Source of the DNA: an uncultured Dehalococcoidia bacterium
GTDB lineage: Bacteria; Chloroflexota; Dehalococcoidia; SM23-28-2
Direction of reading: 5' to 3'
DNA: 64,000 nucleotides
Assembly (NCBI GenBank): GCA_964512285.1
Contig: CAZEJO010000002.1
Span: 32,392-96,391, forward strand
Shown here piece after piece: positions 30,381 through 63,616 of the stretch (its first letter is position 1; each line of letters opens with the position of its first letter). The notes below the pieces were generated by a model. It saw nothing but the letters and a program-made list of their open reading frames with translations. It was not told the origin of the DNA and did not search any database. A program made the position numbers and the translations under genes.

Positions 30381-30382
30381 CC

Positions 30383-32858: not shown

Positions 32859-32904
32859 GGCTGAGACGAAGGCCGAGAGCTCGAGGGCATCAGGGAGGCC
32901 TAGC

Positions 32905-33909: not shown

Positions 33910-33968
33910 CGTCCAGGGCTTTCTGAGGCCGTAACGTGGAGTGACAGGGAGCGAGGAGCAAAGAAGAG

Positions 33969-35453: not shown

Positions 35454-35456
35454 TGA

Positions 35457-46583: not shown

Positions 46584-46585
46584 TG

Positions 46586-47461: not shown

Positions 47462-47906
47462 CCAGAAGCTGCAATCGCGTTGCCTGAAGCCGTTTCTCGA
47501 TGACGTGGGCAATACGCTTCATGAGTTCGTAGCCGAGTTCGTGATCTTCTTCGCATTTGCCGCGAAGGCATGTCCCATCGAGAGCAACAGCCCGTGTCAA
47601 TTCAACCGCTCGGGCTTCGAAACGCCAGCGGTACGGCTCAATGAGCCACGACCAGCCCAGAATATCGCCTTCTCCAAGGGTCTGAATGATGACAGCGCCG
47701 CGATTGGGAGCGAACGTCTCCACTGCCACCGTGCCGTGCCGAATGAGATAGAACAGGTTAGCGGGCTCGCCCTCTCGGAAGATAACCTCCCCTGCTTTGA
47801 ACCGTACATTCGATGCACACCCGGTGAGCAGTTGAAGGTGGGACCTTTCCAGATCCTTGAAGAACGGGTGCTCCCCCAGGATACGTTCAGCATTCTCTAT
47901 AGTCAT
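47436..47906 (-). CDS. Stand-alone cyclic-nucleotide-binding (CAP/Crp effector) domain protein, no HTH.
   Basis: [48 protein letters not shown]...[11 protein letters not shown] gives a cNMP-binding beta-barrel. 156 aa, so too short for a DNA-binding domain. Embedded between hydB and hydG. Confidence 0.6.
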
Positions 47907-47925
47907 CGGTCCTTCCCCTTTTTTG

Positions 47926-49065
47926 TTAGCTCTTACCTACGCTCAGCCGGATCGCGTTCACTTCCTCTGTTATGTCGATTCCAACCGGGCACCAGGTGAT
48001 GCAACGCCCGCAACCCACACAACCCGATGTGCCAAATTGGTCGATCCACGTAGCCAATTTGTGCGTCAGCCACTGGCGATAACGGGCCATCGCTGAGGAA
48101 CGGACGCTGCCGCCGTGGATGTACGAGAAGTCCATAGTGAAGCAGGAGTCCCACTTGCGCCAGCGTTCGGCGTGCTCGCCAGTCAGATCGGTGACATCTT
48201 CCACAGTGGTGCAGAAACAGGTCGGACAGACCATCGTGCAGTTGCCGCATGTTAGGCAGCGCTTGGCGACTTCGTCCCAGTGTGGGCTTTCATAGCTGCG
48301 GTACAGCAAGTTCTCGATGTCCCGCGTGTACATCTTCCGGCCCATTTCGCTGGCGGTTTTCGCCACGATACGTTCGGCTGCCGTCTTTTGCTCTTCACTT
48401 GCCGCTTCATGGGGAACCTCACGGAGAACCTCTGCGCCCAGCTCCGTGCCAACCTCCGCTACGAAGTAGTGGCGGCCTGCCTCCAGCACTTCCGTCAGTG
48501 CAAGATCAAACCCGAACTTCGCCTCCGGCCCGGTATTCATGGAAGCGCAAAAACAGGTGCCGCCAGCATGACCACAGTTAACCGCAACTATGAAGAGACC
48601 TTGGCGCCGTGCTTGGTAGAAGGGGTCCCTGTATTCTCCGCTCAAGAAGATTTTGTCCTGAATGGCGATGGCGTGGATCTCACACGGCCGGACGCCGATA
48701 AACGCAGACTTAGGTACTTCCTCATCCTCTTCCATGATCTGGAACCCGTTACCGCCGGGCTTGGCTCGCCACAGGCGCACGATCGGCGGGTGGAGAAACT
48801 TCTTCCAGGAGTCGGGTCCGACGGTGTAGCCAAAGAGTGCCTCATCGTTGCGTCTCTTGAGACGGTAGGTACCACCGTCCTGCTCGTCTGTCCATCCGAC
48901 AGGCAGATCCGCAACGGAGGTTAGATCGTCGTACACGATAGCACGGTCGCGAACTGTTGGCCCCCTGACCCGATAGCCTCTCTTCTCCAGAGTATCAAGC
49001 AACTGCTGGAGATGATCACGCTCCAAAGCGGCCAACTCCCTGCCCTGTGGAGAGAGCCCTGTCAT
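47926..49065 (-). CDS. hydB: Sulfhydrogenase beta-like / AsrA-like iron-sulfur subunit.
   Basis: Two C-rich [4Fe-4S] motifs ([28 protein letters not shown]). Proposed start MTGLS at 49065 with AAGAGGTG RBS; the track ORF starts at 49140. Confidence 0.75.
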
Positions 49066-49234
49066 ACTGACGCACCTCTTATCCTGAAGATGAGGCCTGC
49101 ACCTGTGGCAGAGAGCAAGAGCATGGCCCGCAAAAGCCAAGAATGTAGACTACGGACAATTCCTAGCGCCGGTCCCAATAGCTGCATAGCCATCTACAAC
49201 CCTCGCACACCCAGAGGAGAAAAGCGAGGATTCA

Positions 49235-49927
49235 TCACGGCGTATCCTCCAGTCTGAACCAGCCTCTTCTTAGCCCGTAAAGTATAGCCTCCGTACGCGA
49301 ACCAACGCCCAGTTTGTGGAAGATGCTCCCGAGGTGGGCTTGAACCGTGCGCACGCTGAGGCAGAGCCCGTTGGCAATATCCTTGTTGGCCATTCCCTTG
49401 GCGACCAGACGCAGCACTTCCATCTCACGCTCCGTAAGAGACTCGTCCGGCTGCTCCTCGCCAGGCTTGCCCTGGAGCGTCCTGAAGCGATCTATGACCC
49501 TGCGGGCGATCGCCGGATGAAGCACAGACTCGCCGGCGTGCACAGCTCGGATGGCCCCGATCAGTTCGCGAGCACGCACGTTCTTCAGCAAGTAGCCCGC
49601 CGCCCCTGCCTCCAAGAGAGCGAAGATATACTGGTCGCTGTCATAGGCGCTGAGTACGAGAACAGCGATGGCTGGACAGTGAGCTTTGATCTGTCTGGTG
49701 GCTTCGATCCCGTTAAGCTTGGGCATGGCGATGTCCATCAGTACTACGTCCGGTCGCAGCTCCACGGCTAGCTTGGCGGCCTCCTCGCCATCGTCAGCCT
49801 CGCCAATCACCTCCATGTCCCGTTCGCGCTGAATGAGTTCGCGGGTGCCCTCTCGCACTACGACGTGATCGTCAGCAAGCAGAACCCTGATCTCATCCAT
49901 GGGGCGCTCCTCCAGCACCTTAGCCAC
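49235..49927 (-). CDS. NarL/FixJ (LuxR-type HTH) response regulator.
   Basis: [20 protein letters not shown] receiver domain + C-terminal LuxR HTH ([36 protein letters not shown]). Paralog of 55973..56662. Confidence 0.8.
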   Translation of the reverse strand: MAKVLEERPMDEIRVLLADDHVVVREGTRELIQRERDMEVIGEADDGEEAAKLAVELRPDVVLMDIAMPKLNGIEATRQIKAHCPAIAVLVLSAYDSDQYIFALLEAGAAGYLLKNVRARELIGAIRAVHAGESVLHPAIARRVIDRFRTLQGKPGEEQPDESLTEREMEVLRLVAKGMANKDIANGLCLSVRTVQAHLGSIFHKLGVGSRTEAILYGLRRGWFRLEDTP

Positions 49928-50348
49928 TGATCATCATAACCCTCCCTAGGAATTCCTTCAATTAGCAGAACGGCGTAGGCAGAATGGCGTACGCCACTGC
50001 TGAAGGACTGATCGTGGTTGTTTCTGAGCCACTCGAGGGCGGGGCTGCTTTTTGCCCGAGTTGCTGGCGCTGGCGACCATCTTCACCATAGAGGAAGCCG
50101 CGAATTGCCGGTGCTCCGGCCAGCTTCCGCGCTGGCCGCTGCTCTGGAGACAAGCCCTCCGGAGATGGGCGAGCTCAGGCTTGGAGCGCTCACTGCTCGC
50201 GCAAGATGGCAATCGGCCAGTGTTTTGGCTGATGGATGCTGATTCTGTTCTCATGCTTTCCTCGTAGGGCATTTGCTGATTGGAGCTAGGCTTTTCTCCC
50301 GATGAAAGGGGCCGCGCTGGCGTCTACCATGGACTCAGGAGGTGCGAA

Positions 50349-50708
50349 ATGACTACTGCATATCTGCTGGTCAAGGCCAAAGAGGAAGCCCGACAGAACG
50401 GCCTCAGGAGCCAGATGGAGGAGCTGCTGGCGTTGCCCGAGGTCGAATCTGTCCAACCAGTCGAGGGCCTGTACGACTGCGTGGCCCAGGTGGACACTCC
50501 CATGACCACCATCTTCGTGACCCACAAAGTCATGAAGATGGGTTGGGTGGCCAGGGTCCACCTGCTGAGAGTGGCCAAGCAGGTCCTGACAACCGCGGAG
50601 ACCGAACAGGAACGCGCAGCCAGGCTGGCCAAGCAGCGCGAGATCATCGGGCGCCACTGGAGCCATGGACGAACATCCTCGGACGGGCCCGCTGAACGTG
50701 CCGCTTGA
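50349..50708 (+). CDS. Small protein with a stand-alone AsnC/Lrp-type RAM (ligand-binding) domain and one C-terminal ARLAKQREII repeat.
   Basis: MTTAYLLVKAKEE...LALPEVESVQPVEGLYDCVAQVD matches the AsnC C-terminal domain signature. Paralog of 59198..59713. RBS GGAGG. Confidence 0.55.
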   Translation: MTTAYLLVKAKEEARQNGLRSQMEELLALPEVESVQPVEGLYDCVAQVDTPMTTIFVTHKVMKMGWVARVHLLRVAKQVLTTAETEQERAARLAKQREIIGRHWSHGRTSSDGPAERAA

Positions 50709-50931
50709 CGATTCGCTCAGCAAACCTACTGTGCAGCCCAGCAGGCAAACAAACGGCTGCAGACAGAACCTCGAACACCGGAGGTGACGCCTATGCTCAC
50801 GTCACCCCCAGGAGGACCCAGACGATGGCACTGGCCGGGTGCAGAAAAGGGGCCCTAGGGTACAGCGGATGACCGAGGTGTTTACGCCCGAGGGTCAGCC
50901 ATGTGGGGCACAGCGATGGGAGTGGGAATGG

Positions 50932-52293
50932 TCAGGAGTTCCCCTCCGTGGGTCTTCCTTCGCTGACATCTCGAGCGATAACTTGAAAGGCCTTGGGGTG
51001 ACCATCCCTGGTGATCAGGATTGCGCTCAGCCTGAGATGAACCTCCGACCCGTCCTCTTTTTTCAACCCCTGCTCATAAGACCCGCCCAAAGCTTCGCCC
51101 CGCAGTAGCTTGCGTCTCGCCTCTCTGGCCCGCTTGAGGTCCTCTTTGGAAAGGAAGTCCTTGACATTCATACCGATGAGCTTTTCTCGGGAATAGCCGG
51201 TAAGTTCGACACAGGCCCTGTTGACAGCGATGATCTCGCCCTCTAAGTCATGAAATAGGATCGCCTCTGTAGCGTTCTCAAGCAGGCCGCGATAGTTCTC
51301 TTCCGACCGTTGAAGCCAAGCCGCGATTCCTCGCTCCTTCTCATAGAGACGAGCATTCTCAACTGCGATGCCGATGACTCTGCCGCTGGCGCAAAGCAGA
51401 TCTGTTTCCTCGCGGGCAAACCCTCTGGCGTGACGTGTGGCCACGCAAAGCGTCCCCAAGACCTTCCCCTTCGACTCCAAAGGGGCGATAAACTCCGCTA
51501 CAATCTTTTCCTGGGCAATCATCGGCTTCGTAAGCCTGGGATCATGGGAAGCATCTTCTACCACCAGTGGCTCGCCGGTCTGGGCCACTAGTCCATTGAA
51601 GCCCTCGCCAACCTTCATTCTCTTCAGGCTGGCAGCGGTTATTTCAGATATTCCCTGATAAGTTTCGAGCACGAGCTCGTGGCCCCCTTCATCAACCAGG
51701 GATATCAAAACGGCATCCACGTTCGCCACTTCCATTACCTTGCCGGCGGCCAGGTTCAGGATGTCCCGCAGCTCCAGGGACTGGCTGACGATATTGGAGA
51801 TGCCATTGACGGCGGCGAGCTGCCTCTCACTCATCTGGATGACTTCTAGCTGCGCCTGAAGCTGCTGCTGGGCCGCTTGCAGTCTCGAAAGCACCTCTTC
51901 GCGGCGCCCTCTTTCGGCCCGGAGTCGCTCAAAGCCAACGTTGATCACGGCACCCGCAGCGATAACGCCACCCACCTCCACCAGGGCATCGGAGCGATAG
52001 TCGGAGATAGCGAGGGCCCTTGGCAGCATGATGGCGAGAGCCAATGCCGAGGCAGCTAGCCCCGCCCTCATCCCGAACAGGAAGCCGACATAGGTGATGG
52101 GTAGCAGCATGAAGACGCGCTCGATTGCGTGCCGCTCTAGACCCAGCACAGAGCCCGGGTCCTCTATGTGCAGGAAGGGGAGCAACTCATCCGGGTAGTG
52201 CATGGGGATAGCCACTAGGAACATGACCACCGCAACCCAGAGTTCCACGCTCCCCATGGCTTCTGATATCCGGCCTGTGGCCTGCCGCTTCAT
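50932..52293 (-). CDS. Membrane-anchored GAF-PAS sensor protein lacking a kinase domain (truncated paralog of 56719..58725).
   Basis: N-terminal 3-4 TM helices (VELWVAVVMFLVAIPMHYPDELLPFL...), coiled linker, GAF and PAS domains. It ends where the paralog continues into the HisKA_3/HATPase domains. Proposed start MKRQATG at 52293 (RBS GGAGG). The track ORF N-extension is a regulator remnant. Confidence 0.65.
   Translation of the reverse strand: MKRQATGRISEAMGSVELWVAVVMFLVAIPMHYPDELLPFLHIEDPGSVLGLERHAIERVFMLLPITYVGFLFGMRAGLAASALALAIMLPRALAISDYRSDALVEVGGVIAAGAVINVGFERLRAERGRREEVLSRLQAAQQQLQAQLEVIQMSERQLAAVNGISNIVSQSLELRDILNLAAGKVMEVANVDAVLISLVDEGGHELVLETYQGISEITAASLKRMKVGEGFNGLVAQTGEPLVVEDASHDPRLTKPMIAQEKIVAEFIAPLESKGKVLGTLCVATRHARGFAREETDLLCASGRVIGIAVENARLYEKERGIAAWLQRSEENYRGLLENATEAILFHDLEGEIIAVNRACVELTGYSREKLIGMNVKDFLSKEDLKRAREARRKLLRGEALGGSYEQGLKKEDGSEVHLRLSAILITRDGHPKAFQVIARDVSEGRPTEGNS
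51803..52227. repeat. ~430-bp tract nearly identical (about 99% over the first 290 bp, about 95% beyond) to 58235..58659, within the paralogous sensor genes.
   Basis: Direct comparison of the two regions; the identical 183-bp antisense ORFs 51877..52059 and 58309..58491 in the track are a by-product. Confidence 0.85.
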
Positions 52294-52521
52294 GTCCGCC
52301 TCCTCTGGGGATGGGGCCCAGCTGAGGGGTTCCTCAAACTCGTCCTGCAGGCTGAACCAGCCTCCTCCTAGTCCACGAAGTACGGCCTCGCTGCGCGCAC
52401 CTCCAGAACGTCCCCCGTTGCCTATGATAGTCCCCTTTGGTGATCGCTTCAATCGCAGGAATCGCCTAGGGAGAATAGCGGATGCCCCCTTCGGAAAACG
52501 CTGGGCACTCCAGTTTGTCAT
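52294..52521 (-). pseudogene. Remnant C-terminal fragment of a LuxR-type response regulator fused in-frame upstream of the sensor gene.
   Basis: ...SEAVLRGLGGGWFSLQDEFEEP resembles regulator C-termini ([15 protein letters not shown] at 55973; ILYGLRRGWFRLED at 49235). Analogous to the remnant at 58750..58947. Confidence 0.4.
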
Positions 52522-52669
52522 AGGCGTTTGCCCTGGGCAGACCTACGTGCTTTATCGAGGGCGAAATTAGGCCATGCCTCAGATGGCAGATGACGGGCAG
52601 AGCTGTACCTTGAAGCTGGATCGAGGAGGTTAGCCCGAAGAAAGTTCTACGAGAGAGGAGGTTAGCGAG

Positions 52670-52996
52670 ATGACAACGATCGCTTCCAAGGGGTTCGTTT
52701 CCATCTCCGAGGAGTCGGTTCAAGCAGCCCCGGAGTCAGAGACAGCTTGGATCGCCAGGCTGAAGCGGCAGCGGGAGATCATCAAGGCTTACCGTGCCGG
52801 CCTTCCGCGTCCGCCGGGTCCGGAGCCACAGCTTCATTTTGGCCATGCTGGCCCTCCTGGCTGGGAGGAAGCTTGGTTTGCCAGGCTGAAGAGGCAGCGG
52901 CAGATCATCAAGGCTCACTACGAGAAGCGCCGCGCGGCGACGGAGGCTGTCCCTCTTCCAGTGAGGGAACGGCAGGACCTCGCCAAGGCCGCCTAA
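52670..52996 (+). CDS. Small protein consisting only of the tandem AWxARLKRQREIIKAY / AWFARLKRQRQIIKAHY repeats, with a -LAKAA C-terminus (RAM domain absent).
   Basis: C-terminal 75 aa align with the C-terminal half of the 59198..59713 protein (same repeats, same DxAKAA end). RBS GAGAGGAGG. Confidence 0.45.
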   Translation: MTTIASKGFVSISEESVQAAPESETAWIARLKRQREIIKAYRAGLPRPPGPEPQLHFGHAGPPGWEEAWFARLKRQRQIIKAHYEKRRAATEAVPLPVRERQDLAKAA

Positions 52997-53062
52997 AGCT
53001 CATTCGAATGGCCGGGGGCGTGCTACGCAGAAGGCAAGACAGCTGATTACGCAAGGAGCCGA

Positions 53063-54379
53063 TTGAAAGCCATGCAAGGTTCTCGCCTAGGTCCGACGCG
53101 ACATCATCTCTGCTCCTTTTGTGGCAAGAGCGAGGAGCAGGTACGCCACCTTATTGATGGCCCCGGCTCTGTCTACATATGCGACGAGTGCGTCCAGCTT
53201 TGCCAACAGATTCTACAGGAGAAGATGATTCAGCGACCCAGCGCTAGGGTGGCCCTGCAACGGGTGCCGCCCCCTAAGATCATCTATGATCAGCTCGGTG
53301 AGTACGTGGTGGGCCAGGAGCAGGCCAAGAAGGTGCTGTCGGTGGCCGTCTATAGACACTACAAGCGCATCTCCAACAGCGAACGACTCGAGGACATCGA
53401 ACTGGAGAAAAGCAATATCCTGCTTCTGGGCCCCACCGGCTGCGGCAAGACCCTTCTCGCCCGCACCCTGGCCAAGATTCTCGATGCCCCCTTCACCATC
53501 GCCGATGCCACTACCTTGACCGAGGCGGGCTATGTGGGCGAGGACGTGGAGAACATTCTCCTGCCCCTTATCCGGGCGGCAGACTACGATATCACGCGCG
53601 CCGAGCGGGGAATCGTCTACATCGACGAGATCGACAAGATCGCCCGCAAGAGCGGCTACAACCCCTCCATCACCCGCGACGTGTCAGGAGAGGGAGTCCA
53701 GCAGGCGCTGCTGAAGATCATCGAGGGGTATGTGGCCAATGTGCCGCCTCAGGGTGGTCGGAAGCATCCTCAACAGGACTTCATCCAGATCAACACGGCC
53801 AACATCCTCTTCATATGCGGTGGCGCCTTCCTAGAACTGGATGCAATCATCGATAGGCGCGTGGGCGCAAGCAGACGCTCCCTGGGCTTCCGGGCGGGCC
53901 TCGCTCAAGAGGACTCGACTAAGACCCGCGATGAGATCCTCACTCATGTGGCGCCTGATGACCTCTTGGAGTACGGCCTTATCCCCGAGTTCGTGGGACG
54001 CCTGCCGGTGATTGCGCCTCTGCAATCGCTGGACAAGCAGGCCATGATGGCTATCCTTACCGAGCCCAAGAACGCCCTGGTGAAGCAGTTCCAGCGCTTC
54101 TTCGCTCTGGACGGGGTAGAGCTAGTATTCACCGAGGATGCGCTGGAGGCGGCGGCTGAGGAGGCCATGCGGCACAAGATGGGCGCCCGCGGCCTGCGCA
54201 CGGTGGTGGAGGACACCCTGTTGGACGTGACGTACGAGATCCCCTCCCACCCCAACATCAAGAAGTGTGTGGTCAATGCTGAAGCCATACTGGGTCACCG
54301 GAAGCCTATCCTACTTAGCGCTGACGGCCAGGCGGTGGAGCCGTCGGAGGAAGAGGAAGCCCGCGCCGAGACAGCCTAG
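53063..54379 (+). CDS. clpX: ATP-dependent Clp protease ATP-binding subunit ClpX.
   Basis: N-terminal zinc-binding CSFCGK...CDEC, Walker [15 protein letters not shown], pore loop GYVGEDVEN, sensor motifs; 438 aa. Confidence 0.9.
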
Positions 54380-54623
54380 GCTGGCTCCCCTAGCCATTTA
54401 GCCACCCGCCCTACCACGTAGCTCTGACTCCGCTCAGATCTTGAGGGGATAACCCTACGGCACAGTCGTCAAGTGCTGATTCCAGTAGCTCATAGACCAC
54501 ATCCCTTGCCCCCAGCAATTGTATGCTCGACCGCTGAGCGAACCCCGACAGCCTGTCTGAGAAGCAAGAGGCCGCCCATTCGGCGGCCTTCGCCTTGCAT
54601 GCGTTGTGACTGTTAGTCAGAGA

Positions 54624-54901
54624 TGGAGCGGGAGACGGGGATCGAACCCGCGACAACCTGCTTCGAAGGAAGAAGGTCATCTGATTGGGCAGCGCTAATT
54701 GCTAAGCCCCCAGATTCGAAGATCGGGGTGAAAACGGGGCAAAAGCAGGGTGCAAATGAGCTCTCACCGAAACGGGCGGCAGGTCCTGACCCTGCTCCAT
54801 CGGCAATCGAGCGACCCCATACAGCCCTCGAAGGGATGTCAGGTGCCTTTCGCCGGCTTCCTCGGTTTCGCGTCGAACAATCTAAGCACCCGCGGCTGCC
54901 A
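54624..54901 (-). ncRNA. ssrA: tmRNA-like (ssrA) gene, ~278 nt; atypical, and the tag reading frame is unresolved.
   Basis: Minus strand 5' GCGGGUGCUUAGAUUGUUCGACGCGAAACCGAGG... resembles the tmRNA 5' end / helix 2 (E. coli GGGGCUGAUUCUGGAUUCGACGGGAUUUGCGAAACCCAAGG). 3' end ...GCGGG-UUCGAUC-CCCGU-CUCCCGC-U-CCA is a tRNA-like T-arm + acceptor with encoded CCA. Located next to clpX. Short length, a U-U mismatch, G3-C rather than G3-U in the proposed acceptor, and no clean ...LAA* tag frame lower confidence. Confidence 0.5.
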
Positions 54902-55025
54902 GGCCCATAATGAGGGCGGCTCGCCCTCGCCGCAGGCACGTGGCACGCCAGGAGGCGGTGGCTGGTAGGCCTTGCCGACGCCCTGCATGCGGTTACCCCG
55001 CCGGACATGGTAGTATCTCTCTGAG

Positions 55026-55226
55026 ATGCCGATCTACGAGTACGTCTGCTCCTCATGCGGCTACCGCTTCGAGAAGCTGGTGCGGAGCATTGGTTCCGGA
55101 CAGCCGAAGACGCGTTGCCCCCAGTGTCACAAGGACAACGCGCAACGGGCCGTCTCATCCTTCGCCGTAGGCGGCGGGGCATCGCCGGGCTTGCCAGTCG
55201 AACCTGGCCCAGTTGGCGGCGGTTGA
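55026..55226 (+). CDS. FmdB-family zinc-ribbon regulatory protein.
   Basis: [16 protein letters not shown]...TRCPQCH CxxC...CxxC zinc ribbon typical of the FmdB family; 66 aa. Confidence 0.7.
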
Positions 55227-55386
55227 AGCCTGACCCGATGCTGATCCCGTGGGGATCGGGTCGCTGGCCAACGCCATGGTGTGCTTCGTGGTGGCGATGG
55301 GTGCGGGTAACAGTGCCAGCCAGGGTGATGCCCAAAGATCTCATAAAGCTTCTGACACTGAAAGGTGCCAAGTGGCGCAGATAGAT

Positions 55387-55659
55387 GTGCGAACGACGCC
55401 TGAGGGTGAAGGCTGGGCCTTCCAGGTGACTGTGTCAGGGGGCGGCGGCCAAACTAGCCACCGCGTCACTATGAGCCGCAACACCTACCAGCAGCTAACC
55501 GGCGAGGTGTGCACTCCAGAGGAACTTGTGCGGAGATCGTTTGAGTTCCTCCTAGAACGCGAGCCTAGGGAATCCATCCTCCGCGAGTTCGAGATCACGG
55601 TCATTTCGCGGTACTTCCCAGACTACGAACGCGAGATCAGCAAACGCATTCGCCCTTGA
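55387..55659 (+). CDS. Hypothetical small protein.
   Basis: Open frame with GTG start; no recognisable motif; weak RBS. Confidence 0.3.
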   Translation: MRTTPEGEGWAFQVTVSGGGGQTSHRVTMSRNTYQQLTGEVCTPEELVRRSFEFLLEREPRESILREFEITVISRYFPDYEREISKRIRP

Positions 55660-55972
55660 CGCTGGTCGAGGCTCCTGCCTCACGGGGCCGCACACTATGT
55701 CTTCTCTGTTATTGATAGGCTGAGCGAAGCGAGCACGGAAAGTACTAGTCCGTGTCTGTGAACTCGAAAGCCTCGAGGCGACGTACTGCGAGGAGGAGAG
55801 CGAGGACAGCGGTGAGTGGTCTTGCGACTTGCCCTGACAGGGCCAAACCTGCAAAGCGTGGCGCTAGGCCTCATCACCTAGAGTGCCACGCAGCGATTCC
55901 TCAAGACAATGGGAACGGATCTGCCCAGCCGATCCCCCTGTTTAACCGTCAGATGACGTAGTAGACTAGTAG

Positions 55973-56662
55973 TTGGAGACAAGGGAGGACTCGATGGAGA
56001 AGATTCGCGTTCTGCTGGCCGAGGACCATGTAGTGGTGCGTGAGGGCACGCGCGAACTGATACAGCAAGAGCAGGATATGGAAGTGGTGGGCGAGGCCGG
56101 GGACGGGGAAGAAGCCATAGAACTGGCCGCCGAGCTTCGCCCAGACGTGGTGATAATGGATATCGCCATGCCCAAGGTCAACGGCATCGAGGCAACCAAG
56201 CGGATCAAGGAACTCTACCCGGCCACCGCCGTATTGATACTGACCGCCTACGATAATGAGCAGTACATCTTTGCCCTTCTTGAGGCGGGGGCGGCAGGGT
56301 ACTTGCTGAAGAATGTGCGCCGCAGCGAGCTCATTGATGCCGTGCGCGCAGTGCGCGCGGGCGAGTCAGTCCTTCATCCCGTGGTAACCCAAAAGGTCCT
56401 AGAGCGGCTCCGGAGCGGTGAAGGTAGGCCAGGTGAAAAGGGAGGGAGTGGATACATCCTCAGTGAACGGGAGATGGAGGTCCTCCGCCTGGCGAGCAAA
56501 GGCATCAGCAACAAGGACATTGCCAGAGAACTTGTGGTTAGCGTGCGGACGGTTCAGGCTCACCTGGGTAATATTTTCAACAAGCTGGGGGTGGGTTCGC
56601 GAACGGAGGCTGTGCTGCACGCGTTGAGACGAGGCTGGTTCAGCCTGGACAAGGAGATCTAA
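55973..56662 (+). CDS. NarL/FixJ (LuxR-type) response regulator, paralog of 49235..49927.
   Basis: [41 protein letters not shown] receiver domain; C-terminal Lux[40 protein letters not shown]. Confidence 0.8.
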
Positions 56663-56718
56663 GAAGCTCCCCGGTCATGGCTGGTCTGCCTAAACTGGCT
56701 TGAGTGATCCCCTTCCGC

Positions 56719-58725
56719 CTAAGCTGGCACCTCGACAGTTACCGTTGTGCCTTTGTCCAATTCCGACTCTAGTGTCAGCTTGCCACCGACAAGGCGAACT
56801 CGCTCTTCCATCCCGGCCAGGCCAAGCTTGCCAACGTTGGTCAGGTCTGCCGTGTTTCGAGGAGCCTTGAAGCCCTTGCCATTGTCTCTGACGCTGAGGG
56901 TGGTCTTGCCGTGATCGAATTCCAGCGTAACCCAAGCCCGCGAGGCCTCGGAGTGTTTCCAAACGTTCCTTAGCGCTTCCTGAGCGACGCGGAAAAGGAC
57001 CAGCTCCACCTCGGGGGAGAAGCGGCGCTCCGCGCCCATCACCGCCATGCCGATAGTTATGTCGAAATGCTTTTCCAGGTCAGAGATGAGCCACTCTAGG
57101 GCAGGCAACAGGCCCAGATCATCTAGTACGGACGGACGCAGGTCCTGGCTGAAGCGACGCACACCTTCCAGTATCTTGTCGACCCGTGCCTGTATCTCCT
57201 CCAGAAGCTTGAGGTCTTGCTTTGACAGTTTCCTCGGTACGGAAGTCAAACCGTCCAGCTGACGGGACAGGGCCACCAGTTCTTGAGCTGTCTCGTCATG
57301 AAGCTCACGGGCGATGCGCTTGCGCTCTTCTTCTTGGGCTTTGGTGACCTGGTGAAGGAAAAAGCGCAGGTTCGCCTGCATCCGCTTTTCCTCGGTGATA
57401 TCGCGGGCGATAAGCTGATAGGCTCTGGACTGACCATCGCCAGTAATCAGGCTTGCGCTCAGACTGAGACTGGCCTGCGAGCCGTCCTTTCTTCTGATTT
57501 CGCCTTCATAACGCCTGTTTACCATCCCGCCTATGAGCAGCTTGCGCCGAACCTCCCTTGTCCGCTGAAGAGCCTCCCCGGAGAGAAAATCCTCGACGTT
57601 CATGCCAACGAGTTCTTCTCGCGAATAGCCGGTCAGCTTGACACAGGCCTCATTGGCCATGATGATCTCGCCATCTAGATTCTGAACCCAGATGGCATCC
57701 TCGGCGCTTTCAAACAGGTCGCGATAGTTCTTCTCCGATATTCGCAGCTGTTCGGCCATCAACCGCTCTTCCTGATAGAGGCGGGCATTCTCCACGGCGA
57801 TGGCGACAACGTTTCCGCCAGCACAAAGGAGATCTATCTCCTCAGCAGGAAAGCGTCTGGGATGACGTGCGGCCACGCAGAGAGTGCCCAACACCCTCCC
57901 TTTGGACTTGAGAGGGACGATAAGCTGAGCTTGAATCCCCTCCTGACTCACTGCCGCCCTCGTCAGTCTAGGGTCTTGAGAGGCATCTTCTACCACTAGT
58001 GGCTCGCCGGTCTGAGCCACTAGTCCATTGAAACCCTCGCCCACCTTCATCCTCTTCACGCTGGCAGCGGATATCTCAGATATGCCTCGATAGGTTTCCA
58101 GGACAAGCTCATCGGTCGCCTCATCGATCAGGAATACCAAGATGGTCTCTAGGTTCGCCACTTCCATCACCTTGTCGGCGGCCAGATTCAGGATATCTGG
58201 CAGCTCCAGAGACTGGCTCACTATGCTAGAGATGGCATTGACGGCGGCGAGCTGCCTCTCACTCATCTGGATGACTTCTAGCTGCGCCTGAAGCTGCTGC
58301 TGGGCCGCTTGCAGTCTCGAAAGCACCTCTTCGCGGCGCCCTCTTTCGGCCCGGAGTCGCTCAAAGCCAACGTTGATCACGGCACCCGCAGCGATAACGC
58401 CACCCACCTCCACCAGGGCATCGGAGCGATAGTCGGAGATAGCGAGGGCCCTTGGCAGCATGATGGCGAGAGCCAATGCCGAGGCAGCTAGCCCCGCCCT
58501 CATCCCGAACAGGAAGCCGACGTAGGTGATGGGTAGCAGCATGAAGACGCGCTCGATTGCGTGCCGCTCCAGGCCCAGCACAGAACCCGGGTCCTCTATG
58601 TGCAGGAAGGGGAGCAACTCATCCGGGTAATGCATGGGGATAGCCACTAAGAACATGGCTACCGCAAGCAAGAGTTCGAAGCTGCGGATACCCTGTGCCA
58701 CCTGGTCTGTGGACTGCCGTCTCAT
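56719..58725 (-). CDS. Membrane-anchored GAF-PAS sensor histidine kinase (HisKA_3/NarX-type + HATPase_c).
   Basis: N-terminal TM helices nearly identical to the 50932 paralog, then GAF, PAS, H-box ARELHDETAQELVAL (HisKA_3) and HATPase (GKGF...GLAGMEERV...GGKLT). Confidence 0.8.
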   Translation of the reverse strand: MRRQSTDQVAQGIRSFELLLAVAMFLVAIPMHYPDELLPFLHIEDPGSVLGLERHAIERVFMLLPITYVGFLFGMRAGLAASALALAIMLPRALAISDYRSDALVEVGGVIAAGAVINVGFERLRAERGRREEVLSRLQAAQQQLQAQLEVIQMSERQLAAVNAISSIVSQSLELPDILNLAADKVMEVANLETILVFLIDEATDELVLETYRGISEISAASVKRMKVGEGFNGLVAQTGEPLVVEDASQDPRLTRAAVSQEGIQAQLIVPLKSKGRVLGTLCVAARHPRRFPAEEIDLLCAGGNVVAIAVENARLYQEERLMAEQLRISEKNYRDLFESAEDAIWVQNLDGEIIMANEACVKLTGYSREELVGMNVEDFLSGEALQRTREVRRKLLIGGMVNRRYEGEIRRKDGSQASLSLSASLITGDGQSRAYQLIARDITEEKRMQANLRFFLHQVTKAQEEERKRIARELHDETAQELVALSRQLDGLTSVPRKLSKQDLKLLEEIQARVDKILEGVRRFSQDLRPSVLDDLGLLPALEWLISDLEKHFDITIGMAVMGAERRFSPEVELVLFRVAQEALRNVWKHSEASRAWVTLEFDHGKTTLSVRDNGKGFKAPRNTADLTNVGKLGLAGMEERVRLVGGKLTLESELDKGTTVTVEVPA
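58235..58659. repeat. Second copy of the near-identical ~430-bp tract (see 51803..52227).
   Basis: Direct comparison of the two regions. Confidence 0.85.
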
Positions 58726-58749
58726 CTCGGCCTCTTCTGCGGATGGGGC

Positions 58750-58947
58750 CTAGGCGGAGGGTTCTTCAAGCTCGTCGTGCAAGTCGAGCCATCCCGTCTT
58801 GAGCCCATAGAGCACAGACTCGCCAATCGCATCCATGTCCCGTTCGCGCCGAATGAGTTCGCGGGTGCCTTCCCGCACCACAATACTATCCTCAGCAAGC
58901 AGAACGCTGATCTTCTCCATGGCGCCTTCCTCCAGCACCTCAGCCAC
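58750..58947 (-). pseudogene. In-frame internal-deletion remnant of a LuxR-type response regulator (N-terminal 43 aa joined to the C-terminal ~20 aa).
   Basis: [43 protein letters not shown] | SVLYGLKTGWLDLHDELEEP. Compare with the intact regulator at 49235: [43 protein letters not shown]...EAILYGLRRGWFRLEDTP. Confidence 0.55.
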
Positions 58948-59197
58948 TGACCATCATAACCCTCTCTAGAGATCGCTTCAATTGGCAGGACAGCGTAGGC
59001 AGAATCGCCTACATCCCTGCCAAAGAGACGTAGGTGACCCCGCTTCTCATAGGCATTTGCTCAGAAGAGAGACAGGTGCTTTCTCCGAGAGGAGATTAGG
59101 CCTTCGCTCGGATGGCAGGTGGTTGGCACAAGTATAGGCTGAAATTGGATCGAGGAGATTGGCCCGGAGAAGGTCCAGCAGACAGGAGGTTAGGAAG

Positions 59198-59713
59198 ATG
59201 GCAACGACGGCTTACTTGCTGATTAGAGCGTCGGAAGCTATCCGGAACAACGGGTATCTCAAGGCGCTCGAAGACTTATGGGCACTCCCTGAGGTCGAGT
59301 ACGTGGAGCCAGTATCGGGCCTGTATGACTGTGTGGCGAGGGTAGAGGCACCGATAAGGCTCATCTTTCTGGTCCACAAGATCATGGCGAAGAGCTGGAT
59401 CGAGCGTGTGCACGTCCTCAGGGTTGACCAGCCAGTCGCAACAGCCCTGGAGTCCGAGGAAGCTCGGACGGCGAGACTGATGCGGCAGCGCGAGATCATC
59501 AAGGCTTACCTTGCTGGCCTTCCGCGTCCGACCGGACCAGAGCCAGAGCTCCATGCTGGTCATGCTGGTCCTCCTGGCTGGGAGAAGGCCTGGATGACCA
59601 GACTGAAGCGGCAGCGCGAGATCATCAAGGCTCACTACCGGGAGCGCCGCGCGGCGTCGCAGGCTGACACTCCTCCAGCGGAGGAAGGGCAGGACATCGC
59701 CAAAGCCGCCTAA
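59198..59713 (+). CDS. Small protein: stand-alone AsnC/Lrp-type RAM domain + tandem ARLMRQREIIKAY / TRLKRQREIIKAHY repeats, with a -IAKAA C-terminus.
   Basis: MATTAYLLIRASE...LWALPEVEYVEPVSGLYDCVARVEAP is a RAM-domain signature. The C-terminal half duplicates the 52670 protein. RBS AGGAGG. Confidence 0.55.
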   Translation: MATTAYLLIRASEAIRNNGYLKALEDLWALPEVEYVEPVSGLYDCVARVEAPIRLIFLVHKIMAKSWIERVHVLRVDQPVATALESEEARTARLMRQREIIKAYLAGLPRPTGPEPELHAGHAGPPGWEKAWMTRLKRQREIIKAHYRERRAASQADTPPAEEGQDIAKAA

Positions 59714-59723
59714 AGCTCATTCG

Positions 59724-60290
59724 ATGGAGGCGATGGAGATGAGGGTAAGAAGCTTCGAAACAGCGCTCCGGACTAAAGTGGAGACGGAAGGAGGCGGCAG
59801 CATGACACCTGTTCATCCGCCACGGAGGATGAGAGCGGTGGGTTACGTGAGACAAGGCTTCGGGGAGATGGACAGGAAGCGGACCAGCCCCGAGGAGCAA
59901 AAAGCAAGGATAGCTGGCTGCGCCGATGCCCATGGCTGGCACCTCGTCCAGACCTATGAAGACATTGGCTGGTCAGGAGGCGACCTGAGCAGACCGGGCC
60001 TACCTGAGCTGCTCTCCAGGTCAGACTTCGAGATCCTGATAGTAGATAGGACGGATCGCCTGACGGGCAAGAAGAAGGACCTGGACTTCTTACTCGCCCT
60101 GCTCGAGAAGCGCGGCATCACTTGTGTGCCTGCCACCTGGTCGTGGGAGCCTCTGGCTCAGTACATGAGATGCTGGTACCGCCTGAAGGCCGATCCTGTA
60201 TATGCCTTGCTCGACTCATCGCCTGTAGTAACTGACTCGGCCCTGGCCAAAGACGATGCGTCTGCAGGTGCAGCGAAGGCCGCAGCCTAA
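59724..60290 (+). CDS. Serine-recombinase (resolvase/invertase) catalytic-domain-like protein, probably degenerate; no DNA-binding domain.
   Basis: RAVGYVRQ...TSPEEQKARIAGCADAHGWHLVQTYEDIGWSGGDLSRPGLPELL...FEILIVDRTDRLTG parallels the resolvase N-domain (YARVSTxxQ...cadahGw.lv..y.D.g.SG....RPgl..ll........d.liV...DRL.R). The catalytic Ser region is disrupted by an insertion. 188 aa. Confidence 0.35.
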   Translation: MEAMEMRVRSFETALRTKVETEGGGSMTPVHPPRRMRAVGYVRQGFGEMDRKRTSPEEQKARIAGCADAHGWHLVQTYEDIGWSGGDLSRPGLPELLSRSDFEILIVDRTDRLTGKKKDLDFLLALLEKRGITCVPATWSWEPLAQYMRCWYRLKADPVYALLDSSPVVTDSALAKDDASAGAAKAAA

Positions 60291-60356: not shown

Positions 60357-62510
60357 GTGATGGCTTCCAGGGAGATTTTCTGGAACATTCAATTCGGCGA
60401 GATCGTCTATCTGCTTGCGTTCATAGTAGTAGCTATTGCCGCCTACGCAGTGTACCGACGTGTTCGGCTCTGGCGGCTCGGCAGCAAGGACGACAGGCTA
60501 AGCAACCTACCGAACAGGATATGGACGGTCTTCGTCAAGACGATGGCCGATGGCCTATGGCACAAACGCATTGTACGCGCTCGCTATGCAGGGATAATGC
60601 ACCTGCTCATCTTCGGCGGGTTTGCTCTCCTTCTGATCGGACCGCTCCTGGACTTCACCAGCGATCACTTCGTCCACTTCCTAAAAGGGAATGTCTACTT
60701 AGGGGTCTCTCTAATGCTAGACGTGGGCGGGCTGCTAGTCCTTGCCGGACTCGGCATGGCCGCCTACCGCAGGTATGTCATCAAGCCAGCGAAACTGGAT
60801 AACCTGCTAGACGATGCCCTTACCCTGACGCTGCTCGCCGTAATCATCATCACCGGTTACGCCGTGGAGGGGCTGCGAATCGCCACAACCGAACTGGACA
60901 CCCACTCTGACTGGGCAGTGTGGTCGCCTGTAGGATTCGTCTTCGCCAAAGCGTTCAGCGGCCTTGGAGAGGACGTGAACTTGAGCTTGCACAAGGGGCT
61001 GTGGTGGGGCCACATGCTGATATCCCTTGGGACCATCGGCTACGTCTTCCTCAGCTTCTCGAGACTGGCCCACATCTTTGTCGCCCCGCTGAACATGTTC
61101 CTACGGTCTACGGACGGCAAGGGCGTCCTCAAACCTATCGAGATTAGCGAGGAGACCGTTGAGACCCTTGGAGCAGCAAAGCTCCAAGACCTGACCTGGA
61201 AGGATCTGCTCGACCTCGACGCTTGTACGCGGTGTGGCCGGTGTCAGGAGGTCTGCCCCGCCTATCTCAGTGGCAAGCCGCTTTCGCCCAAGAAACTAAT
61301 GCAGAAGCTGAAGACTCACTTGGTCGAGCAGGGACCCGCCCTACTCCGAGGCAAGAGCAACGGACAGCCTGAAGCAGACGATGGTTGTCCCGCCCTAATT
61401 GGTGACGTGGTAACCGAAGATGAGTTATGGGCATGCACCACATGCGGTGCCTGCGAGGAGGCGTGCCCTGTCTTCCTAGATCCCATCGGCAAGATCATTG
61501 CCATGCGTCGGAACCTGGTGCTGGAACAAGGCAAGATCTCCGGCACTGTCATGGCGAGTCTCAGATCAACTCAAGACAGGGGCTGTCCCTGGAAGGGGGC
61601 ATCAGCCTCACGAACGGATTGGGCTTCCGGCTTGCCTGTGAAAACTCTTTCCGACAATGGTCATGTCAAGCTCCTATTCTGGGTAGGATGCACCGAAGCC
61701 GTCGTCGAGCAGACTATGAACATACCCATCGCCATGACAAAGATCCTGGATGCGGCAGGGGTAGACATCGGCTTCCTTGGCTATGAGGAATCGTGCTGCG
61801 GCCACTTCGCACGCCGTCTCGGTGACGAGTACCTGTTCCAGTGCCTAGCGAAGCAAAACATCGAGACTCTAAAGCGCTACAACGTGGAGAAGATCGTTAC
61901 CGCCTGCCCGCATTGCTACCACACCCTGAAGTATGAATACCCGCAGTTCGGGGGAAAGTTTGAGGTGGTTCACCACACGGAGCTGCTCCTTGAGCTGATC
62001 AATGAGGGCAAGCTGAAATTCAACAGGGAACTCAACAAGACGGTGGCCTATCAGGACCCCTGCTATCTCGGCCGATACCATAACATGTACGAGGCCCCGA
62101 GGAAGATCCTCGCAGCCATCCCGGGTATCAAAGTAGTGGAAATGTCCCGCTCTCGCTCTGAGAGCCTATGCTGCGGCGCCGGCGGAGGCCGCATGTGGAT
62201 CGAGGAAGAACCCGATCAGAGAGTGAACCGATTGCGCAGCCAAGATGCGATCGCAACAGGGGCGGACATAGTCGTTACAGCCTGCCCCTATTGCCTCCAG
62301 ATGCTCCAGGATGGAATAGGTGGACTGGAACTGGAGAAGCCTGTGGAGGTGCTCGACCTGGTGCAGTTGTTAGAGGACTTAGTGACGGTTCCGGTGGAGC
62401 CTGCGCCTGCCTTGGAAGTTGACGCCGCCACTGATGGCCAGCAGTCGAGTGCCGCTGGCAGCAGCCAAGGCGATCAAGAGAGCGTAGGGGTCGAAAGGTC
62501 GGGGAGTTGA
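60357..62510 (+). CDS. Membrane-bound heterodisulfide-reductase-like fusion: N-terminal NarI/HdrE/DsrM-type di-haem cytochrome b domain + C-terminal HdrD-like domain (2x[4Fe-4S] + two CCG domains).
   Basis: aa 1-250 has 5-6 TM helices with conserved His (IMHLLIFGGF, WWGHMLISLG, FSRLAHIFVAPLNMF). It also has CTRCGRCQEVCP and CTTCGACEEACP ferredoxin motifs. CCG domains VGCTEAV...CCGHFARR and DPCYLGRYH...CCGAGGG...CPYCLQMLQDG. 717 aa. Confidence 0.7.
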   Translation: MMASREIFWNIQFGEIVYLLAFIVVAIAAYAVYRRVRLWRLGSKDDRLSNLPNRIWTVFVKTMADGLWHKRIVRARYAGIMHLLIFGGFALLLIGPLLDFTSDHFVHFLKGNVYLGVSLMLDVGGLLVLAGLGMAAYRRYVIKPAKLDNLLDDALTLTLLAVIIITGYAVEGLRIATTELDTHSDWAVWSPVGFVFAKAFSGLGEDVNLSLHKGLWWGHMLISLGTIGYVFLSFSRLAHIFVAPLNMFLRSTDGKGVLKPIEISEETVETLGAAKLQDLTWKDLLDLDACTRCGRCQEVCPAYLSGKPLSPKKLMQKLKTHLVEQGPALLRGKSNGQPEADDGCPALIGDVVTEDELWACTTCGACEEACPVFLDPIGKIIAMRRNLVLEQGKISGTVMASLRSTQDRGCPWKGASASRTDWASGLPVKTLSDNGHVKLLFWVGCTEAVVEQTMNIPIAMTKILDAAGVDIGFLGYEESCCGHFARRLGDEYLFQCLAKQNIETLKRYNVEKIVTACPHCYHTLKYEYPQFGGKFEVVHHTELLLELINEGKLKFNRELNKTVAYQDPCYLGRYHNMYEAPRKILAAIPGIKVVEMSRSRSESLCCGAGGGRMWIEEEPDQRVNRLRSQDAIATGADIVVTACPYCLQMLQDGIGGLELEKPVEVLDLVQLLEDLVTVPVEPAPALEVDAATDGQQSSAAGSSQGDQESVGVERSGS

Positions 62511-63616
62511 CCATGACGAAGGAAGAGAGTTGGGTCTCAAGCAGATACTCGCCGGACGATGCTGAGGATTGCCTAGGGCTTCTGGCCAAGATCTGGGGCG
62601 ACAGCGAGCTCGCGTCCCCAGCCTATCATGACTGGCAGTGCCAGCGAAGCCCGGCGGGCGCAGGTATCGCCACCCTGGCGCGAGGAGTGGAAACGGGCCG
62701 ACTTGTTGGCCAGGCAGTAACGATACCTGTCAGTGTAAGGCTTTCCGGCAAGGCACGCACCGCTGGGCTTTCCTTGAACCCAGTGGTGGATCCCGGCTAC
62801 GAAAACGGTGACATCTTCGTCGGTCTAATGAGGGATGCCTGTGCCTTCTCAGCGGAGGCGGGTATCGCCTATTCCTATGGCTTCCCTGACCAACTATCCT
62901 ATTCGAAGTTTGTGAACAAGGCTGGGTTCAGGGATATCGGCTCGGTTCCCCTCCTCATCAGGCCGCTGAACCCAGAGCGCCTGGCTTCGAAGGCAACACA
63001 CAGCCTCGTTCTAGGAAAGACGGCCTCCGTTGCCAGGAAGATCTGGCGCACTCCTGCACCCGCTCCGCGACAAGAGGTTCCACCCGATCTGGAGATATCG
63101 GAGGTTGGCTCCTTCGACGACTCCTTTGCCGTCTTCTGGGACAGAATCCAGCACCGATTCCCCGTCATGGTGGTCAGGGATCCCGCCTACCTCAATTGGC
63201 GGTTCAGCGACGCGCCGACAAGACAGTACATGACCTTCGTCGGCAGATCGGACGGGAAGATCCGAGGATTTGCCGTCCTTCGCATTGCGCCGCTGGGCCC
63301 ATTCTCGGCAGGCCTGATCGTGGATCTGATGGTGGAGACCAGCGCAGAGGGCCGCCTGGTGGGCCGCCTCCTGATCGACCGAGCGTACTCGTATTCAAGA
63401 GACCACGATTTGGACCTCGTCGCCAGCCTGGCCCTGCGCCACACCGATGAATTTCGACTTCTCCGGTCAAAGGGCTTCTGGGTATGTCCAAAATTCCTGC
63501 AGCCTCAGCCCTACCGCCTCGTTGTTCGCTGCCACGATGAGGAGGCCAGCCCCAGCCGCCTGGCCTATGACCTACGGAACTGGTTCGTCACGATGGGGGA
63601 CTACGATGCAGTGTAG
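62507..63616 (+). CDS. GNAT-like acyltransferase family protein (FemAB/BioF2-like duplicated GNAT fold), function unknown.
   Basis: Two GNAT-like halves (GFRDIGSVPLLIRPL...; KIRGFAVLRIAPLGPFSAGLIVDLMV...). Start overlaps the preceding gene (ATGA). Confidence 0.4.
   Translation: MTMTKEESWVSSRYSPDDAEDCLGLLAKIWGDSELASPAYHDWQCQRSPAGAGIATLARGVETGRLVGQAVTIPVSVRLSGKARTAGLSLNPVVDPGYENGDIFVGLMRDACAFSAEAGIAYSYGFPDQLSYSKFVNKAGFRDIGSVPLLIRPLNPERLASKATHSLVLGKTASVARKIWRTPAPAPRQEVPPDLEISEVGSFDDSFAVFWDRIQHRFPVMVVRDPAYLNWRFSDAPTRQYMTFVGRSDGKIRGFAVLRIAPLGPFSAGLIVDLMVETSAEGRLVGRLLIDRAYSYSRDHDLDLVASLALRHTDEFRLLRSKGFWVCPKFLQPQPYRLVVRCHDEEASPSRLAYDLRNWFVTMGDYDAV

Follow-up and report, generated by a model that had tools for sequence, protein, structure and literature searches.

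A family of small RAM-domain proteins with arginine-rich tail helices and its apparent link to Hdr-like gene clusters in Chloroflexota

RAM domains are chiefly known from transcription factors; they dimerise and bind small ligands at dimer-dimer interfaces, and stand-alone RAM proteins are able to enter hetero-oligomers with other RAM-containing proteins (PMC2995911). The Lrp/AsnC (FFRP) regulators combine this effector and oligomerisation domain with an N-terminal winged helix-turn-helix (HTH), and the known stand-alone proteins, namely P. horikoshii DM1 (2e1a), S. tokodaii STS042 (2zbc) and T. thermophilus TTHA0845 (2djw), consist of the RAM domain only (75-85 aa, against about 75-90 aa for such proteins in general), belong to amino-acid metabolism loci and have full-length Lrp as their partner. 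Here we describe three paralogous genes, A, B and C, from a 64,000-nt stretch of an uncultured Dehalococcoidia bacterium (contig CAZEJO010000002.1, positions 32,392 to 96,391; hereafter the window), which appear to belong to a family of small RAM proteins associated with gene clusters for heterodisulfide reductase (Hdr)-like complexes. Comparison loci are designated by L numbers and database proteins by P numbers.

A and C share with the Lrp/AsnC regulators the RAM domain, and with the known stand-alone proteins a RAM fold without any DNA-binding domain. However, A, C and their relatives carry 40-170 additional C-terminal residues that form one to four Arg-rich helices with Pro-rich linkers, while B has no RAM domain at all. 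Furthermore, this family is bacterial (Dehalococcoidia) and occurs in hdr-like operons, and its proposed partner is an enzyme subunit, to which the RAM domain is fused in sister lineages (RAM::HdrC). A, B and C are not Lrp/AsnC regulators because no HTH was found in any of them by Pfam or NCBIfam, nor in the AlphaFold2 model of C; the RAM domain already begins at residue 1-4, and what extends the protein is of another kind and sits at the C-terminus. Siroheme decarboxylase AhbA/B and NirDL keep an HTH-like domain and are catalytic themselves, and their sequence relation to the A/C family is limited to the fold. The stand-alone RAM fold was thus known already; what is new is a set of RAM proteins with a multiplied tail, tied to Hdr-like enzymes.

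The N-terminal domain of A and C (about 78 residues, carrying ALPEVExVxPVxGLYDCVAxV) is a genuine RAM fold. Taken individually, both sequences score under the gathering cut-off of 25 bits for PF01037 (AsnC_trans_reg; A 14.4 bits, C 15.8 bits, E 0.013-0.035), which distant relatives clear (P0135 with 30.1 bits and P0189 with 26.0 bits), and a 71-sequence family profile matches the stand-alone RAM structures 2zbc, 2e1a and 2cvi with E values of 3e-5 to 1e-4. The AlphaFold2 model of C (pLDDT 84.6) displays a beta-alpha-beta-beta-alpha-beta arrangement at residues 4-76 followed by helices at residues 87-105 and 128-156, and only the ~76 RAM residues align in fold searches with this model; the G-x-Y-D signature was checked along with the RAM fold in the family. 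Family profile, model and fold matches therefore agree with an earlier reading of the window from its letters alone (the sequence-only reading), which had recognised a RAM domain without HTH. The three open reading frames (ORFs) also lie where that reading had placed them, each with a GGAGG-type ribosome-binding site (RBS), and have the layouts it had described, a RAM domain with one repeat in A or two in C, and two repeats without RAM domain in B. They are the only copies in the window, as judged by tblastn with C as query.

Gene neighbourhoods and gene fusions both point to Hdr. Across the relatives, what follows the family gene directly is most often an hdrC-hdrB-hdrA-like operon. In addition, among the 120 best clusters (lowest identity about 55%), RAM::HdrC proteins, with the RAM signature ahead of the HdrC cysteine motifs, account for at least 58; some 14 further clusters of these 120 carry the same N-terminal extension, several of the fusions have a precomputed PF01037 match, and the RAM domain of the distant relative P0153 is fused to an HdrC recognised by TIGR03290 (E 8e-25). 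In these fusions the RAM domain precedes HdrC, at its N-terminus, and the HdrC of the window lineage starts precisely at the would-be RAM attachment point. The RAM domain of C is nearest to that of the first stand-alone paralog (R1), which bears the tail helix LSVDELIKLKRLI. The two 4Fe-4S motifs of HdrC (CxxCxxCxxxCP) are absent from A, B and C and present in the downstream or fused partners; the three proteins are not HdrC itself but its neighbours or fusion partners. The RAM::HdrC proteins (P0200-P0273; L017, L022-L026) are 255-290 aa long, are widespread in Chloroflexota, are annotated merely as 'HdrC' or '4Fe-4S dicluster domain-containing protein', and have one or two stand-alone RAM paralogs in front of them. 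A full-text literature search retrieved no paper pairing HdrC with 'RAM domain', or combining heterodisulfide reductase, Dehalococcoidia and AsnC.

Several gene orders recur at these loci. The family gene lies directly 5' of an HdrC-like gene, with a 12-nt gap, in L001, L002, L003 and L004. A histidine kinase-response regulator (HK-RR) pair is divergent from a RAM-plus-repeats gene, itself followed by an hdrC-like gene, in L007, L008, L010 and L013, with hdrB where the contig continues and hdrA in L008 and L013. In L002, L005 and L020b, acs-satP precede the RAM-plus-repeats gene and the hdrC-like gene (then hdrB/hdrA where the contig continues), and L001/L005 group with L002 and L020b in the order acs-satP, RAM-plus-repeats, hdrCBA with the 12-nt gap. 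The wider relatives L022 and L026 have a divergent HK-RR pair, two RAM genes, RAM::HdrC, HdrB and HdrA (plus FlpD in L026), and L024/L025 show RAM, RAM::HdrC, HdrB and HdrA without an adjacent two-component system. As to the window, C is followed by a resolvase-like gene and then by a 717-aa protein with HdrC-like and HdrB-like domains. L020 is syntenic with the window around C and continues with a cupin gene, acs, satP, a fourth family member and an hdrC-like gene; by this synteny, a fourth copy and an hdrC-like gene are expected just past the window end. Judged from these arrangements, the ancestral cluster is apparently an HK-RR pair divergent from one or more RAM genes followed by hdrC-hdrB-hdrA, and the A/B/C family appears to belong to the Hdr-like gene cluster, not to the neighbouring sensors as such. 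The HdrC-like proteins encoded 3' of the family genes have variable N-terminal extensions, such as a Cys-rich region of ~170 aa (L002 2874-3980, L005 8477-9595); that of L013 (7494-8492) includes a transmembrane (TM) helix and CWQIKGC...CPAYP, a piece found as a separate 137-aa ORF in L014 (8524-8937).

Searches among 5.8 billion sequences retrieved 141 relatives of C at E<=1e-3, all from metagenomes or from metagenome-assembled genomes (MAGs) of Dehalococcoidia or Chloroflexota, all annotated 'hypothetical', unnamed and without Pfam domain. Nothing stood above the cut-off in Pfam, NCBIfam or PHROGs, so that the view of A, B and C as an undescribed small-protein family holds. A scan of one genome per species located 12 family loci in seven Dehalococcoidia MAGs and one Chloroflexota MAG, and the A protein has an identical database entry (P0123). 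On these data, within a wider family of small RAM proteins that head hdrC-hdrB-hdrA-like operons in Chloroflexota, A, B and C most simply form a branch specific to Dehalococcoidia.

The substitution pattern fits the codon phase of the plus strand, which led us to reject the antisense ORFs (e.g., 50286-50723 and 59276-59635, minus strand) as shadows. The ratio of nonsynonymous to synonymous substitution (dN/dS) is 0.07-0.20 for the RAM domain, 0.02-0.19 for the first helix, about 0.2-0.5 for the second helix and 0.4-0.97 for the Pro-rich linker; the first tail helix is thus constrained as strongly as the RAM domain. These purifying values, together with an RBS for all three genes, indicate that A, B and C are translated and under purifying selection, and dispose of the possibility, raised by the sequence-only reading, that the ORFs are untranslated. 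The A type has an ortholog in L006 (4594-4950, 118 aa, one helix, terminus GERAA; dN/dS 0.34), on which ground A was rejected as a frameshifted pseudogene of C. For B, orthologs give dN/dS of 0.36-0.40, and a RAM-less lineage comprises P0117-P0120, P0122, P0145, P0160 and two tandem copies in L019. According to the alignment, B is an in-frame internal-deletion form in which only the first ~5 codons remain ahead of the final stretch of the last RAM strand, with all that lies downstream retained. Each type thus appears to be a conserved lineage, A being a conserved one-helix subfamily and not a decayed copy. The two L019 copies (114-791), on a related metagenome contig, are a tandem duplicate of the RAM-less gene directly upstream of clpX, with an inter-copy dN/dS of 0.14.

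The tail is built from an Arg/Lys-rich helix motif, A-R-L-x-R/K-Q-R-E-I-I, present once in A and twice in both B and C. In B, the cores ETAWIARLKRQREIIKAY and EEAWFARLKRQRQIIKAH are identical at 15/18 residues and 42/48 nt, a repeat far above chance. Among 120 relatives, 17 proteins have one motif, 94 have two, and three or four motifs occur in 4 proteins each. When 1.84 billion cluster representatives were searched with HMMER, the repeat region turned up only in the A/B/C family, and the RAM domain alone in about 80 clusters, with relatives mostly of 80-130 aa. Some distant RAM relatives close with a similar helix (EALRLKRQRELIKG, LSVDELIKLKRLI; two copies in P0143 and P0156), and P0129, P0128, P0143 and P0156 bridge the tail motif. 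Because distant stand-alone RAM relatives carry such a helix, it appears to be ancestral and multiplied in the window lineage to 1-4 copies. The tail unit has no match in Pfam (searched with B) or NCBIfam, and its best hits are E 0.019 in PHROGs and E 0.12 among PDB profiles; a known, phage or ribosomal family was accordingly rejected, sequence and fold searches alike being without significant match.

The helices, described in the sequence-only reading as basic and amphipathic, are indeed basic, with an isoelectric point (pI) of about 11.4-11.6 and 5-9 Arg/Lys each, spread all round the helix, but they are not amphipathic, since the hydrophobic moment (0.06-0.37) is not above that of shuffled sequences. 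Mean hydrophobicity is low and, in the alignment, invariant Arg/Gln occupy every helix face. Amphipathic or membrane-binding helices were rejected on account of the hydrophobic moment. As whole proteins, C (pI 8.7) and A (pI 7.9) are near neutral, with acidic stretches on the flanks of each helix, and B has a pI of 10.3. Arginine-rich-motif RNA-binding peptides are short helices with many Arg/Lys around the helix. The tail helices resemble those of lambda N and HIV Rev in their shortness, in Arg/Lys placed all round and, in some units, in a conserved Trp; there is no sequence homology with them and the family leader holds no conserved RNA hairpin, so that this is a likeness only.

Because of this pattern of fusion and adjacency, we take the partner to be an Hdr-like enzyme and not a transcription factor, and we tentatively favour, at somewhat less than even chances, the reading of A, B and C as detached RAM accessory or regulatory subunits of Hdr-like complexes. 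Through their RAM domains, the stand-alone proteins would pair among themselves and, where present, with RAM::HdrC, and would act as accessory or allosteric subunits coupling a putative metabolite signal to the Hdr-like redox complex. The Arg-rich tail helix, strongly constrained in its first copy, would provide an ancestral second contact element, multiplied to 1-4 copies, and the Pro-rich linkers nearly neutral spacers between helices. Transcription would probably be set by the two-component system, through the GTAGGC-N6-GCCTAC region that travels with every paralog. B, made of helices only, could be a competitor or could have a separate role tied to clpX. An analogous allosteric role is played by the ACT-fold small subunits of acetohydroxyacid synthase (IlvN/IlvH), which belong to another superfamily branch (ACT, not RAM) than the A/C family and serve another enzyme. 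A more ambitious form of the same proposal, in which the RAM domains, free or fused to HdrC, would be metabolite-sensing allosteric subunits of a flavin-based Hdr-like electron-transfer complex of Chloroflexota and the multiplied helices would set stoichiometry or tethering, is conceivable and we hold it to be rather unlikely.

Several observations weigh against the accessory-subunit proposal. An AlphaFold2 model of a natural RAM::HdrC fusion shows no confident domain packing (pTM 0.48, with low confidence in the C-terminal half). None of the window paralogs lies directly before hdrCBA: the next gene is a convergent truncated sensor for A, clpX for B and the resolvase-like one for C, and some relatives (L009, L012, L014-L016) are found in unrelated contexts. 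In addition, B is conserved without RAM domain, so that the helices have some role outside RAM pairing. Finally, non-amphipathic helices with Arg/Lys all round are no less suited to binding nucleic acids than to docking on a protein.

This last point leads to the alternative that fares best, although we consider it unlikely, namely that the family members are nucleic-acid-binding regulators in which the RAM domain senses a metabolite and oligomerises while the Arg-rich helices replace the HTH and bind DNA or the mRNA leader, for instance at TAGGC boxes or at the palindrome, for auto-regulation and co-regulation of the hdr operon beside the two-component system. Besides the charge of the helices and their Arg/Lys placed all round instead of on one face, this possibility draws on RAM domains being best known in transcription factors (PMC2995911) and on the RAM-less B form being conserved and basic overall. 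It also fits the upstream region, ~230 nt long and palindrome-bearing, which at every family member (window; L002-L020) is conserved nearly like coding sequence whatever the upstream gene. This region starts with the RR gene start on the opposite strand and contains a TTGGCA(C/G)-N-TAG(G/C)C stretch and a minus-strand TTGAAG-17-TAT(G/C)AT promoter-like site, a sigma-70-like promoter being predicted on the minus strand in all three window copies. Upstream of C, the palindrome GTAGGC-N6-GCCTAC is perfect (58995-59012) and accompanied by further TAGGC boxes and by the sigma-70-like promoter (58981>58953, minus). However, such a palindrome is a typical candidate site for the adjacent LuxR-type regulator, and the region is probably the divergent promoter/operator of that regulator. 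A structured 5' leader or riboswitch was rejected after RNAalifold of 13 leaders (-8.75 kcal/mol, covariation term -0.12), and an RNA target thus finds no conserved structure or covariation in the leader. Moreover, no known DNA- or RNA-binding fold or family is matched, C and A are near neutral overall with acidic stretches beside the helices, and the recurrent fusion of the same RAM clade to the enzyme subunit HdrC fits a pure transcription factor poorly.

The model put forward in the sequence-only reading, a ligand-sensing adaptor for the sensor kinase or the LuxR-type regulator whose level is set by ClpXP through a C-terminal Ala-Ala, seems improbable to us. The HK-RR pair is indeed the conserved divergent neighbour at many loci, and one RAM-receiver fusion exists (P0149). 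However, this fusion is a singleton among 3254 matches and was rejected as a two-component link; set against the RAM::HdrC clusters and the prevalence of the hdrC-hdrB-hdrA-like neighbour, it leaves the supposed partnership with sensors or LuxR regulators unsupported. Nor are the repeat proteins always sensor-adjacent, since L002, L005, L011 and L012 (after satP or other genes) have no adjacent intact two-component system, and in the window the RR is reduced to a remnant at two of the three copies and one sensor is truncated. The two-component system more plausibly controls the transcription of the RAM-hdr operon.

As to ClpXP, the AKAA ending ascribed to the family holds for B (DLAKAA) and C (DIAKAA) but not for A (ERAA) and is not family-wide: AA, the last two residues of all three window proteins, ends 24 of the 120 relatives and is confined to a sub-lineage, and D[LI]A[KEQ]AA ends 15, in a sub-lineage where it is under purifying selection. 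The E. coli ssrA tag ends in LAA, and the requirement for Leu comes from the E. coli system. The residue at position -3 is K in B and C and R in A, and the antepenultimate residue in that sub-lineage is K/E/Q, not Leu. In favour of the proteolytic part of the model, in the window as well as in L019 (whose clpX was identified by zf-C4_ClpX/AAA_2) a B-type gene lies directly 5' of clpX, a terminator scan of the window detected no terminator-like site in the B-clpX interval, and the neighbouring resolvase-like protein also ends in AAKAAA. On the other hand, the ssrA gene claimed to stand beside clpX was not found nearby by ARAGORN (default and 90% thresholds) or Rfam; it was rejected with no Rfam hit at gathering score, nor at E<=1 over 54300-55500. 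A tRNA-like 3' end, GGTTCGATCCCCGTCTCCCGCTCCA, was noticed by eye at 54624-54665 (minus), without a 5' half and uncalled by ARAGORN or Rfam; it may be what had been taken for ssrA, or an integration-site remnant. A ClpX connection for the AKAA sub-lineage is speculative.

Least of all do we believe in a membrane tether, in which basic helices on an anionic membrane would recruit a soluble Hdr-like complex to the 717-aa HdrC/B-like protein: the basic helices separated by flexible Pro-rich linkers and the place of C upstream of a membrane-anchored Hdr-type protein would suit it, but the low hydrophobic moment and mean hydrophobicity of the helices and the invariant Arg/Gln on all their faces make it very improbable.

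The features of the window are collected in Table 1. The region is made up of segmental duplicates of a single module, which have diverged to about 70-83% nucleotide identity; in its intact form the module has a HK (TM-GAF-PAS-HisKA_3-HATPase) and a LuxR-type RR on one strand and the RAM gene divergent from them. The kinase arrangement of C is repeated in L007, L008, L010, L013, L020, L022 and L026. The RRs beside the RAM genes are reduced to remnants in two of three cases and one kinase lacks its catalytic half; the remnant beside C was recognised as a repeat of the RR facing A, and L020 and L021 have it annotated as a gene of 62 aa. The sequence-only reading had each paralog divergently paired with a membrane sensor, which is correct for B and C (with a RR remnant between) and incorrect for A, divergent from a RR and convergent with the truncated sensor. 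Decay products of the duplicated module are seen at 58750-58947, 52343-52401 and 50932-52293, all on the minus strand.

Downstream of C, the resolvase-like gene starts 10 nt past the end of C, occupies the same position in L020 and L021, and encodes a protein with the terminus AAKAAA; by eye, its Y-x-R-x-S nucleophile site reads YVRQG, the serine being apparently gone. The next gene product, the 717-aa membrane protein, clusters with HdrC-like proteins by BLASTP, is syntenic with L020, L021 and L005 and is followed by a GNAT protein (62507-63616). A second Hdr-like gene pair, without RAM gene upstream, lies at 29229-32365 (plus). It encodes a 660-aa HdrA-like protein, 71% identical to the one after the L008 RAM gene, and a 383-aa protein that resembles the L008 HdrC-like protein in its N-terminal region (33% identity over 118 aa) and, to judge from a 384-aa Fer4+CCG protein of L026, may be a HdrC/HdrB fusion. 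Another duplicated set, at 44029-49140 (minus) and 32815-35921 (plus), comprises a 4Fe-4S Fer4_22 protein (47926-49140) and clusters C13, C14, C24 and C28; its minus-strand copy is downstream of the RR facing A, and L006 has the same set beside family members.

Table 1. Paralogs A, B and C and neighbouring features of the window, with positions counted from its first nucleotide.
Feature	Position	Strand	Size and content	Basis or remark
Paralog A	50349-50708	+	119 aa	ORF and GGAGG-type RBS
A, RAM domain	50349-50579
A, single helix motif	~50598-50660		ERAARLAKQREIIGRH	Protein terminus ERAA
Paralog B	52670-52996	+	108 aa, without RAM domain	ORF and GGAGG-type RBS
B, two helix motifs	~52739-52798, ~52865-52939			Protein terminus DLAKAA; 66 nt 5' of clpX
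Paralog C	59198-59713	+	171 aa	ORF and GGAGG-type RBS
C, RAM domain	59198-59431		Residues 1-78
C, Arg-rich helix 1	59456-59515		Residues 87-106
C, Pro-rich linker	59516-59581
C, Arg-rich helix 2	59582-59665		Residues 129-156	Then acidic tail, terminus DIAKAA
A upstream region	49928-50348	.	Palindrome with 1 mismatch, 49975-49992	Minus-strand promoter-like site 49961>49933
B upstream region	52402-52669	.	Degenerate palindrome	Minus-strand promoter-like site 52452>52424
C upstream control region	58948-59197	.	~230-250 nt	Alignment of 19 upstream regions
Intact REC-GerE (NarL/LuxR-type) RR	49235-49927	-		Pfam; divergent from A
Truncated sensor paralog	50932-52293	-	TM-GAF-PAS, no HisKA_3/HATPase	Pfam; convergent with A, divergent from B
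RR C-terminus remnant	52343-52401	-		Repeats and translation; in frame upstream of truncated sensor ORF
clpX	53063-54379	+		ORF translation; directly downstream of B
Second intact REC-GerE RR	55973-56662	+		Pfam, inverted repeats; convergent with kinase 56719-58725
Membrane histidine kinase	56719-58725	-	668 aa, TM-GAF-PAS-HisKA_3-HATPase_c	Pfam; sensor of HK-RR operon divergent from C
LuxR-type RR remnant	58750-58947	-	65 aa, receiver N-terminus and HTH C-terminus	Between kinase and C
Resolvase-N-domain-only protein	59724-60290	+	188 aa	Pfam Resolvase E 1.7e-11, PHROG integrase
Membrane protein	60357-62510	+	717 aa: NarI-like TM, HdrC-like 4Fe-4S dicluster, two HdrB-like CCG domains	Pfam

In many anaerobes, among them the abundant, mostly uncultured Dehalococcoidia of the subsurface, Hdr-like complexes hold a central place in energy conservation, and to our knowledge little is known of how their activity is controlled. 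The conserved link between RAM and HdrC, which takes the form of a gene fusion in some lineages and of neighbouring genes in others, offers a testable handle on this control and extends the uses of the RAM domain beyond transcription factors. It provides a context for about 140 unnamed small proteins and for at least 58 'HdrC' clusters with an unremarked N-terminal domain, and it defines a new Arg-rich helical repeat whose partner, be it protein, DNA or RNA, can now be sought. Should the family turn out to be made of ordinary operon-specific regulators, the finding would be of modest, local interest. A ligand-sensing domain on HdrC would be unexpected to specialists of Hdr and electron bifurcation and, if the RAM proteins are allosteric subunits, they would represent, as far as we know, the first direct metabolite control built into a Hdr-type enzyme.

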